A stretch of 64,000 nucleotides of DNA from a virus (lineage: Duplodnaviria > Heunggongvirae > Uroviricota > Caudoviricetes), in the IMG/VR virus record IMGVR_UViG_3300011008_000003, one strand, 5' to 3'. A program made the position numbers and the translations under genes. The notes under the pieces are model-generated. The model did not search any database. It was not told where the DNA came from and was given only the letters and a program-made list of their open reading frames with translations. Below, piece by piece: positions 1 through 29,573 of this stretch. Each line of letters opens with the position of its first letter. The first letter of the stretch is position 1.

Positions 1-1428
1 CTTGCCTTTGGAAATATCATACATTATCAGGTACTTGCGGAATTCCGGATTATCGTCTTCCCATTCAGTGTTCTGATAGTAGATTGAACCGTCAGGTTGC
101 GGAATCTTATAACATTCTTCCTTAGCCCACCAGTCTTCATGGTTTTCTTTCTTGTCGTTAAGAACACGGTTAGTCTTGTGCAAGAAACGAAGAATATAAC
201 CAGTAGTGGTCGGAACCTTATTATAAATCTTGTCAAGTGTAACAATGCAATCGTAAGCATATTCGATAATAAGTTCAAAAAGCTTGAGCTTATAGAAGAA
301 TCTTTCAAGAAGGGTAACGTCCTTGATGTTATAGCATACGAAATTGTTCCAGTCATTCTTGTACGCTTCGTTAATAGAACCGTCATATTTTAATTTCTGG
401 TCACCGAGAACAAGGTTAGCAACAAAGTTCAAAGAGTAAGAAGGTAGAGGGTCATGTTTACCGAAAGTCTTATACAATTCCATGAAGTCTATAGAATACA
501 GGCCAGGAATTTCAAATGTAGCACCAAGGTCAACACCTTCAAGTTTTCTATCGCGGATTTCATGCTTGACAGGATCCATACCGAGAGGAGATAAGGCTCT
601 TTCCCAATAGATTGTCTTCTGTGTAATTGCACGAAGCTTTTCGCAACGGTTAATGATATACGGAATATCGTACGAGACAGAGTTCCATCCCGAAATAATA
701 TCGAAATCCATATTCCTAAACCAAGAAACCCATTTCTTAATCAGGTCTTGTTCACTTCTACAATAAACATAAGTAGTATCTTCAAGCTTATCCTTGTCAC
801 CAGTATATGGCTTTAAACCGAACGTAAAGCGCTTCTTTTCACGAGTTGAGTAGCAAGTAATAAGATTTATAGGCCAGTCAGCTTTTTCAGGTGCAGGGAA
901 CTCATATGACGCAAAACAAGAATTATTAAATTTAGTCCAGATATTATTTTCTATATCGAAAACTTCAAATTCATCTTTCGGATATTTCATATCAAAATCG
1001 TAAAGCTCGACTGTCTTGAAAATCTGTTTGTCGAGATTACGTATTTCAATCGGCTGGTCGTCATAATACTTAGAAGAACCAGCAACTTCAATATCGAATA
1101 AGCAAATATTCCAGTCGTTAATATCGACTTCAAGGTTTGCAAAATCGTATCGTTCATGCATGAACTTGACTTCTGGACGAAGGTCAGATTCTGCAATGAT
1201 ACAGTTCGCACTCATCTTATGAGGTTCAATCTGTTCTTTCCTGGTATAAGGAAACTTTTTAACAGGGTTCTTATAAATGTCAGTAATATTTGATTTACCA
1301 GTAGGATCCGAGACATAACACCAAGGCTTATAATCGTATGTGTCCCATGTATTGGAACCTTGTTCCTTTAGCAATATCTTGTTCTTTATCCTATCGTAAT
1401 AACAATTCTTAAAACCAATCTTTGCCAT
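1..1428 (-). CDS. 43: Family B DNA polymerase (T4 gp43-like), N-terminal/3'-5' exonuclease half, runs off the window start
   Basis: Manual translation from ATG at 1428 (MAKIGFKNCYYDR...) stays open to position 1; contains ExoI LFDIEV, ExoII SGWNSVSYDIPYI, SYSLNFVA and ExoIII YNIKDV motifs. Absent from the ORF track because there is no stop in the window. Confidence 0.93.
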   Translation of the reverse strand, partial: MAKIGFKNCYYDRIKNKILLKEQGSNTWDTYDYKPWCYVSDPTGKSNITDIYKNPVKKFPYTRKEQIEPHKMSANCIIAESDLRPEVKFMHERYDFANLEVDINDWNICLFDIEVAGSSKYYDDQPIEIRNLDKQIFKTVELYDFDMKYPKDEFEVFDIENNIWTKFNNSCFASYEFPAPEKADWPINLITCYSTREKKRFTFGLKPYTGDKDKLEDTTYVYCRSEQDLIKKWVSWFRNMDFDIISGWNSVSYDIPYIINRCEKLRAITQKTIYWERALSPLGMDPVKHEIRDRKLEGVDLGATFEIPGLYSIDFMELYKTFGKHDPLPSYSLNFVANLVLGDQKLKYDGSINEAYKNDWNNFVCYNIKDVTLLERFFYKLKLFELIIEYAYDCIVTLDKIYNKVPTTTGYILRFLHKTNRVLNDKKENHEDWWAKEECYKIPQPDGSIYYQNTEWEDDNPEFRKYLIMYDISKGK

Positions 1429-10575: not shown

Positions 10576-10593
10576 AATCCAAACGTGGATAGA

Positions 10594-10621
10594 TAAATGC
10601 AGGTCTTTTGACCTGCATTTA
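10594..10621 (+). terminator. Intrinsic terminator
   Basis: AAATGCAGGTC-TTTT-GACCTGCATTT hairpin after gp13. Confidence 0.75.
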
Positions 10622-10684
10622 TTTTACAATTTTTTCAATTTTTTCCTCATATATAAAGCATAAATCCTACAGGGAGGAAAAATT

Positions 10685-10840
10685 ATGGATTACGAAGAAG
10701 CATATAATCGCCTACTCGAAAATGATATAGCTACTGCAGATGAAATCGAACTTGTTACTGAAATTAACGGGAAGACACTGGGTACGCTGGTCGATATTTT
10801 AGAGGTCAGGACAGGCTCAAAAGACTTTAATGACATCTAA
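10685..10840 (+). CDS. Small hypothetical protein (51 aa)
   Basis: Manual translation MDYEEAYNRLLENDIATADEIELVTEINGK...; GGAGG RBS upstream; below the ORF-track cutoff. Confidence 0.6.
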   Translation: MDYEEAYNRLLENDIATADEIELVTEINGKTLGTLVDILEVRTGSKDFNDI

Positions 10841-10911
10841 ATTATAAATAATAAAGGTTTTAGCAATGCAAAGGCTAAAAACCTTTGCATTTTTATTTAG
10901 GAGAATTTTAA

Positions 10912-25355: not shown

Positions 25356-25781
25356 TTAGGCTAGGTTATTTATATTGAATTTCTTTACTTTCTTATATTC
25401 CTTCGCGTCCTTATATGAAACGATGTCGATTCTTGTATTATGCGGTTCGATGTCTTCGGGATGCATAATCTTAATCATATTCCAGCTAGCAAGCAGGAAA
25501 GCTATAGAATTCCTACGCTGAATATCTTCCAGAGATACATTGCCGAAGCCGTGATAACCGGTTTTGCTCGTACCCATGGTAAAGAGCTGCTTGAAGTGAG
25601 CTAGGTAGAAAGAATCGAAATTCTTATAAAGGTGGCACGACTGGTAAATAATCTTGTTGACCTTATCGACGATGCCGATTCTTGTCAGTGTCTCGTTAAT
25701 AATGCGTTCGTCGACAAGAGGCTTGATAAGAAGTAGTTTGTTAGTTTCGTACATATCAGTATTCCTCAGGTTTCCAGTCAA
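25356..25781 (-). CDS. regA: Translational repressor RegA
   Basis: INETLTRIGIVDKVNKIIYQSCHL....YLAHFKQLF...NVSLEDIQRRNSIAFLLASWNMI. Confidence 0.92.
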   Translation of the reverse strand: MTGNLRNTDMYETNKLLLIKPLVDERIINETLTRIGIVDKVNKIIYQSCHLYKNFDSFYLAHFKQLFTMGTSKTGYHGFGNVSLEDIQRRNSIAFLLASWNMIKIMHPEDIEPHNTRIDIVSYKDAKEYKKVKKFNINNLA

Positions 25782-26238: not shown

Positions 26239-27036
26239 CTAGATTTTCGGCAAGAAGAACGACGGAGAGAACGGAATAGGAATTTCGATTTCTTCATCGC
26301 AGTGAGAACACTTGAACTTTCCGTAAGGAGTAGCGATAAACATGTAGTCACTGACAAGATTCGTAAACTTCGTGAACGACATGCCGTCAAGTTCGCTGAC
26401 ATATTCGTATGCGGTAAGCAATGTTACTTCGCGGCCGTTAATCTTTGTAATGTAACTAGAGAAGTCAAGAAGACCCGGGTCGATGTCGAGAAGCGTATTG
26501 GGGTCATTCTTAATCTTTTCTACTGCCATTTCGGTGTTGATAGTCGGATATTCGATAGAAATCTGGTCGCCGTTAATTTCAAAATATTCCGGCAGAGGCT
26601 TTTCATAATAGGAAACAGAAAGATTCTTGAGTACAAAATCATAATGGGCGATTGTACCGCAGTTCTTACATTCGTAACGGACCTTAAAAGGAATATCATT
26701 ATAGGTATAAGAACGAAGGAAGAAAATAAGCCAGATTTTATCTGCTACGAGAATCTTTGTATAGTCGAATCCGTTACCGTCCCAGATGGAAGTCTTAAGG
26801 ATATTGTTGATAACGAAGTTCGAATTCTGTTCTGTAATGGTGGCGAGCTTCTTAATATTGATTGTGGAGAGTTTCTTCACATAAATCTTGTCTGGATAGA
26901 ACATTCCTTTGGAAGGTAATAAACTCTTGTCCAACAGTATAGCGTTCTTAGGCGGCTGATTAACAATTCCAGCAAGGATGTCTTTGACAGAGCCATTTTT
27001 TGGATCGTTACTGATGTCTATTTTTTCTGATTTCAT
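26239..27036 (-). CDS. Baseplate hub assembly protein (second gp26/gp51-like paralog)
   Basis: LPSKGMFYP...VKKLSTINIKKL...DKIWLIFFLRSYTY, CKNCG and CSHC zinc pairs. Confidence 0.7.
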   Translation of the reverse strand: MKSEKIDISNDPKNGSVKDILAGIVNQPPKNAILLDKSLLPSKGMFYPDKIYVKKLSTINIKKLATITEQNSNFVINNILKTSIWDGNGFDYTKILVADKIWLIFFLRSYTYNDIPFKVRYECKNCGTIAHYDFVLKNLSVSYYEKPLPEYFEINGDQISIEYPTINTEMAVEKIKNDPNTLLDIDPGLLDFSSYITKINGREVTLLTAYEYVSELDGMSFTKFTNLVSDYMFIATPYGKFKCSHCDEEIEIPIPFSPSFFLPKI

Positions 27037-27074
27037 ATATTCACCTCAAGTTTTAACAATTTATTTATAAGAAA

Positions 27075-27455
27075 TTTTGTGAATCGATTAATATTCTCAT
27101 CTTTTGGACAATGCGATTGCTCGAGATCTATAGCCTAATGTAGGAAACATTAGACTACGAGACTATTCACACTTTTGGCATAAAGCTTCATGTCTCGATC
27201 CTTGGGATTTACACTGCAGCTTACGGGGCGGTCATCCTGTACTCCGACTACATCTACAGAAACCATGGCGGCTAAATTTACAGATTGTCAGTCTGTAATT
27301 CGCTGACGTTGAGCATTAACCGTAACCTCGAAAGGCTCGAGATAAACCGGTTCATTTCTGGAAAACCCACATCTCAGGTTTTCAATGGCTAACCCTCTAC
27401 CGACAATTCCATTGGATTGGTCTTCGCTCCGAGGAATTAGACTTAGCTATGTTTG
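27075..27455 (-). ncRNA. Putative structured non-coding RNA of unknown class
   Basis: ~400-nt ORF-free interval, more GC-rich than other intergenic DNA, with dense hairpins at 27131-27157, 27278-27298, 27327-27341 and 27361-27383; promoter-like CTATATTT at 27461-27468 on the minus strand. Confidence 0.55.
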
Positions 27456-27515
27456 GTTTCAAATATAGTAAAAAAACTTTTTACGTAAAATTATTTTAAT
27501 AAAAAATCTGAAATT

Positions 27516-29573
27516 TTAACGATGTTTTCTGACTTTTTTCGTTTCTTCTTTATTCAATTCTGAATTTCCACGAAGACCCTGCTTGACAGCGGCGAGAAGC
27601 TGGCGAGCATCATCCGGAGTACCTTCCATCTTTGCAGCAGTTACGTCGAGCATACCGTGAGAATATGCAGAAAGTGAATTGATGTATTCTTCCGTAATGA
27701 TGTTATCGACGGAAACACCCTTACGAGCGGCTTCTTTTTCAGCTTCTGTACGGATTGCGATACCGAAGAGATATGCGGCATTGAGGTTTTCATCAGTAAT
27801 CGCTTCAGAATACATATTTTTGATTTTTATATCAGTATAAGAACCGTCAGAAGTTTTAGCTTCCTTAGTGCCGTTAACACCGTATTCGTAGTTCATCACG
27901 AGTTGCTTGTCGCCTTCCATAGTTTCAGAAGTATATTGCTGACCTTTACGCTTATCGAATTCTTCCTTAGAAATTTCGATATAGTCGACGCCTTTCTTAC
28001 CGGAACCTGCCTGGCGTACATAATACTTACCGTCTTCAGATTCGACGACGGCGACAGCACCGACAAGTTCGAGTGCGACAGGCTTAGTGGGATTTTCGTT
28101 ATTTTTATTAGATTTCGTACCCTTAGCAGCAGCGCTTTTGTTACCGTTATAGAGACGGTCAGTGTCGAATACGATACTACCCTTTTCATCACCTGTACCG
28201 GTAACACCCTGAGAAGCAGAGTTAGTGACAGTAGTACCCATGCTCATACGTGTAGCAGCTTCATTATGGAATACGAAACTAGTCGGAAGTTCAAATGTAA
28301 CGGCGTCGTGCTTATTGTCTTCGACAAATACAATCTTGTTATTACCGACTGTCTTGACGTCAGTAACAGTAATAGAGTTACCGGCACCGTCTGACATAAC
28401 GTCGCCAGTCTTTGTCTTTTCAATCGGGTTGACTTTTTTCTTGCCAGGAGCAGAAGAAGCACCAATCTGGTTGATTGTGTTATATTCTTTTTCGAGTTCG
28501 TCGTATTTCTTGTCGTATACTCCGAGAGCGGCAGTAAACTCGTCGATAACTTTTTCGTCAGCGCCTATTTGTCTCAGGTTTGCAGCTATTGCATCGATTT
28601 CATCTTTGGACAAACCGTCTTCTGCTGTTACATTATCAAGATATTTAGCGATAAATAAGCCCTTATCAGCATTAAATTCTTCGTAAGCAGTTTCGCGTTT
28701 TTTACCCTTATTTCTCTTTGTATATTCATCGATAGCTGCTTGTGCCAACTGCTGTTTACCCTCATCAGAAAGGGAATTGAACATGTTATTATATTGGTCA
28801 GAAACAATCTGTTTTTCAGCGGCTCTAATATCAGCTTGTTCTTCTCTGATTTCTTGCTTACGCTTTTCATTTTTCGGATTTTTCTTAAATCCACCAAGTC
28901 TAGGAGCAGCCTTGATTTCCTGGTCTACAAGGTTTTCAGCATTCTTACCACCGGTAAGATGTTGAGTATAATCGTCTGCATCCATGACATCCTGTATGAA
29001 ACCTTCGCCGTCATGGTTGAGATTAATTTTATCATCAATCTTCTCATTACTAAGTGGTTCATCGTAGACATACAGAACATAGAAATCTGCAGAAATTTCT
29101 ACAGGACTACCGTAGCCGTTATTATTAAATGACGGATTTTCAAAAGATTTTAAGGTAGCTATGTAATGTTTTCTATCAACGACGTTATGCATCGTTTCAT
29201 CGAATTGAGTAACTTCAATGTTTATAAGATTAGAAACAGAACTTCTCATGTAAGCAATTTGCCCGTAACAATCACAGAGAAATCTATATACTTCCATATT
29301 ATCTGTTTCTTCAAATGTGATACTCATTTCAGTATCACCGAACTTAAATACAGGAATTACAAATTGAGTATTACCGTAATATTTCTTTGCTTCAGTATCT
29401 AGTTTAAATGTAGGCTGTGTTATTTTCTTGATAGTAAATGAACGACGTTCATAGCCACCGTCGCTTTCTCTATTATTATCTAAGTAGTTGTACGGCCAAA
29501 TATCGCAATTAAACCTATAGGTTATATGCGGTTTGACAGAACTTAGATAGTTATAGACATTTACTAACGGCAT
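27516..29573 (-). CDS. Tail tube/initiator-like domain fused to a long C-terminal extension (685 aa)
   Basis: N-terminal ~175 aa YRFNCDI...KKITQPTFKL...YYGNTQFVIPV..GDTEMSITFEETDN has the tube fold; the rest is coiled and beta-rich. Confidence 0.6.
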   Translation of the reverse strand: MPLVNVYNYLSSVKPHITYRFNCDIWPYNYLDNNRESDGGYERRSFTIKKITQPTFKLDTEAKKYYGNTQFVIPVFKFGDTEMSITFEETDNMEVYRFLCDCYGQIAYMRSSVSNLINIEVTQFDETMHNVVDRKHYIATLKSFENPSFNNNGYGSPVEISADFYVLYVYDEPLSNEKIDDKINLNHDGEGFIQDVMDADDYTQHLTGGKNAENLVDQEIKAAPRLGGFKKNPKNEKRKQEIREEQADIRAAEKQIVSDQYNNMFNSLSDEGKQQLAQAAIDEYTKRNKGKKRETAYEEFNADKGLFIAKYLDNVTAEDGLSKDEIDAIAANLRQIGADEKVIDEFTAALGVYDKKYDELEKEYNTINQIGASSAPGKKKVNPIEKTKTGDVMSDGAGNSITVTDVKTVGNNKIVFVEDNKHDAVTFELPTSFVFHNEAATRMSMGTTVTNSASQGVTGTGDEKGSIVFDTDRLYNGNKSAAAKGTKSNKNNENPTKPVALELVGAVAVVESEDGKYYVRQAGSGKKGVDYIEISKEEFDKRKGQQYTSETMEGDKQLVMNYEYGVNGTKEAKTSDGSYTDIKIKNMYSEAITDENLNAAYLFGIAIRTEAEKEAARKGVSVDNIITEEYINSLSAYSHGMLDVTAAKMEGTPDDARQLLAAVKQGLRGNSELNKEETKKVRKHR

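Follow-up and report, generated by a model that had tools for sequence, protein, structure and literature searches.

The window considered here, the entire 64,000-nt stretch of DNA that was analyzed, comes from a T4-like phage. Among its predicted products are a regA-type translational repressor, a baseplate hub, a head-closure protein and a terminase-like protein, the last of these being 30-34% identical to its counterparts in T4-type phages of Vibrio, Aeromonas and enterobacteria. When the open reading frames of the whole window were listed, a 479-nt gap (27037-27515) was found to hold no ORF longer than 38 aa, and the description of this region in an initial annotation as the sole long ORF-free stretch of the window is thereby borne out; the other two gaps comprise a gene truncated at the edge of the window (1-1428) and a 336-nt stretch holding a 51-aa ORF. 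The gap is also more GC-balanced than its surroundings, as had been claimed, with a G+C content of 0.43-0.47 versus 0.32-0.33 in adjoining spacers. The ORFs on either side, both on the minus strand, are complete genes, distinct from one another, and the signals that delimit them (stop codon; promoter, ribosome-binding site and start codon) are their own. Downstream lies the gene for a 265-aa baseplate hub protein (26239-27036; phrog_150, E = 4e-7), and upstream a gene for a 685-aa protein of no known family (27516-29573), for which profile and sequence searches of PHROGs, Pfam and PDB sequences gave no match. Homologs of the 685-aa protein vary in length from 530 to 685 aa, an unusual range for a conserved spot flanked by head-closure and baseplate-hub genes. 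The regA-type gene (25356-25781, minus strand; phrog_242, E = 3e-30) is surrounded by genes for structure and packaging and is the third gene downstream from the RNA described below, a placement that differs from that in T4.

When all of the window was searched with Rfam 15, a single above-threshold match emerged, to RF02947 (cow-rumen-2), at 27304-27200 and on the minus strand only (97.6 bits versus a gathering score of 66; E = 2e-19), in which model positions 1-106 are all covered. Since this full-length, above-threshold match lies at its center, the candidate is not unclassified, and the initial annotation, which had envisaged a new class of ncRNA, is corrected by the very scan that it had proposed as a check: the RNA belongs to a catalogued family. 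The hallmarks of RF02947 are all present at 27298-27205, including the P1 hairpin, the AGCCGCCA junction and the P2 and P3 stems. P2 and P3 of the window carry GAUGUAGYCGGAGUACAGGAUGACC...CCGUAAGC, and P3 retains ACAGGAUGACC...CCGUAAG, as in RF02947. At E-values up to 10, the gap and 13 homologous loci matched only cow-rumen-2 and tRNAs in Rfam, and the 5' and 3' domains that flank this core had no Rfam match of their own. The more familiar classes that had been discounted on inspection were likewise absent from these searches: ARAGORN identified no tRNA or tmRNA in the window and no Rfam tRNA or tmRNA model matched in the gap; no RNase P family gave an E-value of 10 or less in either the window or the 13 homologous loci; and no group I or group II intron model matched at E up to 10, nor is any gene interrupted.

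The cow-rumen-2 motif was reportedly first described in the supplement of Weinberg et al. 2017. In a full-text literature search the motif was named only in the Rfam 15 papers, without a function; Rfam 15 lists it (PMC11701678), with RF02947 typed as 'Gene; sRNA'. P1, the junction, P2 and P3 are all common to the catalogued motif and the window, and the homologs come from rumen metagenomes. The catalogued motif spans 106 nt, with no genomic setting stated, whereas here it forms the center of a phage-borne, multi-copy RNA predicted to measure ~320-370 nt. Judged by sequence comparison, the 106-nt motif is only the middle of a ~360-nt RNA. The RNA of the window is a further member of the catalogued family and adds no new kind; it is the catalogue that under-describes the family.

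From viral and metagenome contigs of the rumen, ~170 homologous loci were gathered, and after removal of near-duplicates we retained 52 representatives with <95% identity, which are 54-94% identical to the window. An exact pattern of the core occurred at 29 IMG/VR loci, and a pattern taken from the sequence 5' of the core at 58 IMG/VR loci and at 116 loci in metagenomes, with the rumen as the source of almost all; in every locus the two patterns share a strand, with 160-194 nt between them. Rumen metagenomes and viromes account for nearly all of the homologous contigs. The core was found in all loci tested with Rfam (14/14 and 13/13), two of them below threshold. Every homolog examined possesses a 5' domain, the core and a 3' domain, in RNAs of ~320-370 nt. 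Conservation extends over 27517-27092, promoter included, and reaches 0.6-0.94 across the RNA, compared with 0.3-0.55 in flanking coding DNA. On this basis we infer a whole RNA of ~360 nt (27092-27455, minus strand), placing its 5' end by the position of the promoter and its 3' end by the limit of conservation and by the terminators that stand behind an A-rich tail at other loci. Aligned with MAFFT (alignment A1), the 52 sequences show 45 invariant and 32 nearly invariant columns, many of which are unpaired. No reading frame is shared within the gap or its homologs; the open frames that occur in homologs are antisense and not common to them.

The RNA gene has a predicted host-type promoter at 27460-27489 on the minus strand, located by consensus scan and conserved across homologs. 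A -35-like TTTACG (27489-27484) is followed, after a spacing of N16, by a -10-like TATATT (27467-27462) that extends to TATATTTG (27467-27460). This corresponds to the promoter-like element recorded on the minus strand in the initial annotation, and its position is kept across homologs: the -10 element stands 25-29 nt before CCUCGG in 43/52 representatives, taking the form TAnnTTTG in 34 and being accompanied by TTTACA/G in 21; TTTACA often lies 17 nt upstream of the -10-like TATATTTG. TAnnTTTG is the Bacteroidota-type -7 promoter motif, and its use here hints at Bacteroidota as the host group. The late-type sequence TATAAATA was found upstream of the RNA in none of the 52 representatives. It does occur beyond the other end of the RNA and outside it, at 27069-27062 on the minus strand, as a T4-type late promoter of the hub gene that is conserved in hub-adjacent homologs; the late promoter said to follow the RNA is thus present. 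An intrinsic terminator directly after the A-rich tail could be discerned at 10 of 51 loci, in some of which a convergent gene comes next. None was recognizable after the RNA at the remaining 41, this window included, and for that reason the 3' end is placed here by comparison and read-through into downstream genes is possible.

Pairs were identified from mutual information and then counted on alignment A1. Across the 52 sequences, 79.6% of cells are paired, versus 62.4% in shuffled alignments and 39-41% with slid partners; the covariation score is 0.449, versus 0.160 when shuffled, and 0/500 shuffles reach the observed values. The energy of single-sequence folds is ordinary (z = -1.07 for the minus strand, -0.58 for the plus strand), so that the structural evidence consists in this covariation and the density of stems proves nothing by itself. 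The test of covariation among homologs that had been recommended therefore comes out positive, and with the one-strand match to RF02947 and the gene's own promoter it sustains the original view of a structured ncRNA gene on the minus strand. Altogether, we show that seven covarying helices (H1-H4 and P1-P3) and four pseudoknots join the 5' domain to the core.

Within the 5' domain, helix H1 (27389-27440, minus strand), supported by covariation, pairs 27440-27437 with 27392-27389 and 27435-27431 with 27397-27393, leaving U27436 bulged, and encloses the invariant loops CCUCGGARCGAA, CAAYYCAAUG and URUCGGUAGAGGG. Its cells are 98.1% paired in the 52 sequences, and three of its pairs show 19-30 double changes. 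One U.G pair of H1 is invariant (52/52) and would be A.C on the opposite strand, which identifies the minus strand as the functional one. A long-range pairing of AATTCC with GGAATT, suggested at the outset, is 65% paired with zero compensatory changes and is not upheld; AAUUCC instead pairs with GGGUU in H1 (98% paired, strongly covarying). A three-way junction of H4, H2 and H3 follows (27314-27387, minus strand), as indicated by mutual information and compensatory changes, which were seen in all three helices: H4 joins 27387-27384 with 27317-27314 (86% paired), hairpin H2 joins 27383-27377 with 27367-27361 (73% paired, a value limited by the alignment), and H3 joins 27351-27348 with 27322-27319 (96% paired). 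Two stems proposed from the single sequence find their place here, GAAAACC/GGTTTTC being hairpin H2 (27383-27361) and CTCGA/TCGAG an insert hairpin inside H3 (27341-27327) that is specific to the lineage of the window. In pseudoknot PK-A (27305-27373, minus strand), the H2 loop (27373-27369) pairs with linker nucleotides 27309-27305, immediately 5' to the Rfam motif; it is 72% paired with double changes at 5/5 pairs, and it engages nucleotides outside the Rfam cow-rumen-2 model.

The core is laid out as P1 (27298-27278), the junction (27273-27266), P2 (27264-27254 with 27219-27205) and P3 (27246-27236 with 27231-27224), with pairing in the 52 homologs of 91% for P1, 81-98% for P2 and 99% for P3. 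P1 is the stem TTACAGA/TCTGTAA that had been picked out previously. Pair counts further disclosed three tertiary pairings (27228-27303, minus strand): PK-B, between 27303-27302 and 27229-27228 (90% paired; GC 19, UA 18, AU 6, CG 3); PK-C, between the P1 loop at 27288-27287 and 27248-27247 (97% paired; GC 37, AU 13); and PK-D, between CAU of the junction (27267-27265) and AUG of the P3 loop (27235-27233; 91% paired; AU 42, UA 7, CG 2). Two further pairings were considered and dropped: one proposed by RNAalifold between AGCC (27273-27270) and GGCU (27135-27132), both strands of which are invariant, and a long-range match of 27342-27332 with 27203-27193, which is lost in the closest relative, L170.

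The 3' domain (27131-27199, minus strand), delineated by comparison of homologs, consists of hairpins Ha and Hb. Ha is a putative variable hairpin, at 27197-27158 in the window, in a domain that aligns poorly; the CGAGAC/GTCTCG pair that spans it, also listed in the initial annotation, is present in the window, and 46% of its cells are paired in this poorly aligned region. A candidate single outer helix closing the domain, UCGAGA with UCUCGA, has 50% of its cells paired, again where the alignment is poor. Hb (27157-27131) is better conserved, in its loop UUUCCUA and in its 3' strand UAGGCU, and it is the stem TAGCCTAATG/CATTAGACTA of the initial annotation, the fourth of the six stems proposed there to be borne out by homologs: a perfect 6-bp version exists in 24/52 homologs, compared with 2.6 expected from shuffles, and the L035 lineage has a compensatory change of UA to CG. 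Beyond Hb comes a conserved UCUC (27126-27123), and then the A-rich tail.

Flanking Hb is a direct repeat (27092-27178, minus strand) composed of X1, CCAAAAGUGUGAAUA (27178-27164), which lies in or next to Ha, and X2, CCAAAAGAUGAGAAUA (27107-27092). The two copies change in concert between lineages (L001-L182), A-run length included, and their score is 17.8 within a molecule versus 12.7 between distant RNAs. No complement of X1/X2 was found in cis. An alternative-pairing switch was rejected for them, the longest shared third-strand complements measuring 4.6-4.75 versus 4.4 in shuffles. The simplest ideas are that X1 and X2 could both be docking sites of a single partner, or could stem from the duplication of a module.

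Several resemblances to well-known RNAs were entertained and discarded. The RNase P hallmarks, CR-I (GAGGAAAGUCC) and a P4 pseudoknot in a P1-P3 frame, were not found in the RNA. An RNase P-like P4 (AAGUC/GGCUU, or AAGUCUA with UAGGCUU) was set aside because AAGUC-CUAA is already used by the covarying H1, a U-to-A change in three lineages is uncompensated, and no P1-P3 exists upstream. The sequence GAUAUAGUCGGA has what we take to be a likeness to the P7/S element of group I introns, which likewise fell in view of the lack of a model match or an interrupted gene. Presumed likenesses to the sarcin-ricin loop and to the L11-binding region of rRNA are incompatible with the covarying pairs. Finally, the invariant GUACAGGAUGA (27241-27231, minus strand) resembles what we take to be the CsrA SELEX consensus, RUACARGGAUGU; with its GG and AUG tied up in P3 and PK-D, the likeness does not suit the covarying pairs and is a lead at most.

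The genes adjoining the RNA vary from locus to locus and include those for hub, tail tube, wedge, a DHH phosphoesterase and a Rad50-like protein, as well as the end of a tRNA array. The hub gene lies downstream in 10/52 representative loci, and homologs of the 685-aa protein lie upstream in 11/52. Clustering of neighbors revealed no linked protein gene, only locus-specific genes. At most loci the RNA and the downstream gene have the same orientation. In one lineage an array of 10-25 tRNA genes on the same strand immediately precedes the RNA, tRNA-Gly(UCC) being the gene next to it, and the RNA has its own promoter upstream and an intrinsic terminator and then a convergent gene downstream; loci L048, L088, L090, L106 and L173 belong to this lineage, as does L124 at a distance of 2.5 kb. 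The stable RNAs of T4, species 1 and 2 (bands C and D), are encoded in a tRNA cluster, measure ~120-140 nt and are single-copy. They share with the present family their origin in T4-type phage and, for part of the family, adjacency to tRNA genes, but the T4 RNAs are much smaller and occur once per genome, and the two are not known to be related in sequence.

Four dispersed copies are present in each of two complete phage genomes (424 and 416 kb), and a 98%-complete phage genome of 411 kb has three. In a FastTree sketch of the 52 RNAs, the hub-adjacent copies fall into four separate clades, mixed with other loci, and two copies from the one 424-kb genome share a clade; within the limits of such a sketch, this suggests exchange or gene conversion between paralogous copies. 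BLAST searches of 50,697 deposited phage genomes yielded no homolog even at E = 10, from which it follows that no cultured phage among them carries the RNA, and the nearest record to the window (G001, 27 kb) contains no copy. When 185,579 prokaryote species, represented by one genome each, were interrogated with the core pattern, 16 hits were obtained, 14 attributable to chance and two true. The latter (L065, JAFQXD010000042.1, 191 kb; L066, JAFRFB010000097.1, 173 kb) are binned as Methanobrevibacter MAGs from goat gut, and their RNAs are at least 95% identical to a copy in the 416-kb phage; they are probably phage contigs in the wrong bin. Phage DNA, that of uncultured T4-like and giant rumen phages, is the only place where the RNA family was found, and a single genome can hold as many as four copies that have diverged from one another.

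Taken as a whole, the invariant unpaired nucleotides, the four pseudoknots and the covarying helices suggest that the RNA works through its three-dimensional fold, and the large number of invariant nucleotides left unpaired speaks for tertiary folding, or for a surface that binds something, and against antisense action. Action in trans is suggested by the differing gene neighborhoods, by the promoter that the RNA has to itself and by its presence in several copies. We accordingly favor, while judging the case for it to be evenly balanced, a reading in which this is a free-standing gene of an uncultured T4-like rumen phage for a folded ncRNA of ~360 nt that acts by means of a partner-binding fold. 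Host RNA polymerase would presumably transcribe the RNA early, and the product would operate in trans as a compactly folded particle, on which the invariant nucleotides of junctions and loops make up a binding surface for a conserved partner. That partner would most probably be a protein of the host or phage machinery for gene expression or RNA handling, and the RNA might thereby serve as an RNP or a decoy, with neither antisense pairing nor regulation of a neighboring gene involved; the duplicated A-rich 3' element may be a double binding site. Since no protein gene was found to accompany the RNA, an RNP stands beside other possibilities, among them a ribozyme and a small-molecule binder, which the anatomy would suit as well.

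A more far-reaching proposal, which we regard as doubtful though worth some credence, is that the extended cow-rumen-2 RNA constitutes a new functional class that works by its fold alone, as a ribozyme, a sponge or a self-assembling RNA, and that is deployed early, from four copies, to seize control of the host or disarm it. If true, giant rumen phages would possess a ribozyme, a sponge for a host signaling molecule, or a particle like ROOL or GOLLD. Few RNAs are at once large, highly structured and rich in invariant nucleotides, and several of those have proved to be ribozymes, ligand sensors or self-assembling particles. The catalogue covers only the central 106 nt and gives no function; the full-length gene is now defined, and its promoter, boundaries, helices and pseudoknots provide a construct for transcription, probing, imaging and pull-downs, by which function becomes testable.

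Catalysis, or tight binding of a small molecule, is one specific form that such activity could take, whether in the processing or repair of RNA or as a sink for a host signaling nucleotide. A length of ~360 nt, four pseudoknots and many invariant junction nucleotides are features of the kind by which candidates for ribozymes and aptamers have been nominated among large bacterial RNAs (PMC5737381); the position of one lineage at the end of tRNA arrays and the lack of a linked protein gene are also in keeping with this. We nevertheless think it rather unlikely, given that no known ribozyme or riboswitch family matched at E up to 10, that neither a cleavage site nor a substrate or ligand can be pointed to, and that the evidence fits protein binding equally well.

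The lack of a terminator at 41/51 loci means that the transcript may run on and that the RNA could act in cis, and a cis-acting RNA might head a long transcript that reads into structural genes, either as an element that modifies polymerase for antitermination or as a structured leader. HK022 put and the Bacillus EAR are such polymerase-modifying cis RNAs, of 70-120 nt, and like them the present RNA is folded, would lie at the start of a transcript and precedes co-oriented genes, with no terminator at most loci. Every dispersed copy has its own promoter, moreover, and a surface that does not vary is what one would expect for binding to a target as conserved as RNA polymerase. On the other hand, put and EAR lack the present fold, and no Rfam match to them, or to any cis-regulatory family, was obtained in the gap; at 13 homologous loci, too, no cis-regulatory family matched. 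Downstream genes are unrelated from locus to locus and sometimes convergent, some copies end at terminators, as in the tRNA-array lineage, and the hub gene has its own late promoter; the RNA thus lacks the consistent downstream gene expected of a riboswitch or cis-regulatory leader. We consider a role in cis unlikely, and the partner-binding RNA acting in trans remains our preferred reading.

Self-assembly into a multimer resembling the RNA-only cages of ROOL and GOLLD, the duplicated 3' element supplying contacts between subunits, seems to us improbable. The likeness to those RNAs is partly one of setting and complexity: they too are large, intricate and pseudoknotted, borne by phages or prophages and often adjacent to tRNA genes (PMC5737381), as the present RNA is in one lineage. 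A recent cryo-EM preprint describes homo-oligomers of ROOL, GOLLD and OLE (bioRxiv 10.1101/2024.12.08.627333). The concerted change of X1 and X2, with no partner in cis, would fit contacts of this kind. Against this, the window and 13 loci gave no match to the ROOL and GOLLD Rfam models at either the gathering or the E-value threshold; at ~360 nt versus ~580-800 nt the present RNA is about half their size; it occurs only in lytic-type T4-like phage contigs and not in bacterial genomes; and it has no conserved palindromic kissing loop, CCAUGG being present in part of the family only.

A DNA-level element such as a replication origin or packaging site, or else a decayed coding gene, might be imagined from the gene-free interval between structural genes and its palindromes CTCGAG and AGATCT, but is scarcely credible, and the possibility of a dead gene or origin raised in the initial annotation is contradicted by strand-specific covariation, in that compensatory changes occur, an invariant G.U would be A.C on the other strand, the covariance-model match is single-stranded, the promoter is conserved, and no frame is conserved, the longest ORF being 38 aa and those of homologs antisense and unshared.

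A second gene-poor spot in the window (10576-10911) contains the 51-aa ORF mentioned above (10686-10841), which is flanked on both sides by terminator-like sites, each a hairpin plus a T-run, and is preceded by a promoter-like TTTACA...TATATAAA.
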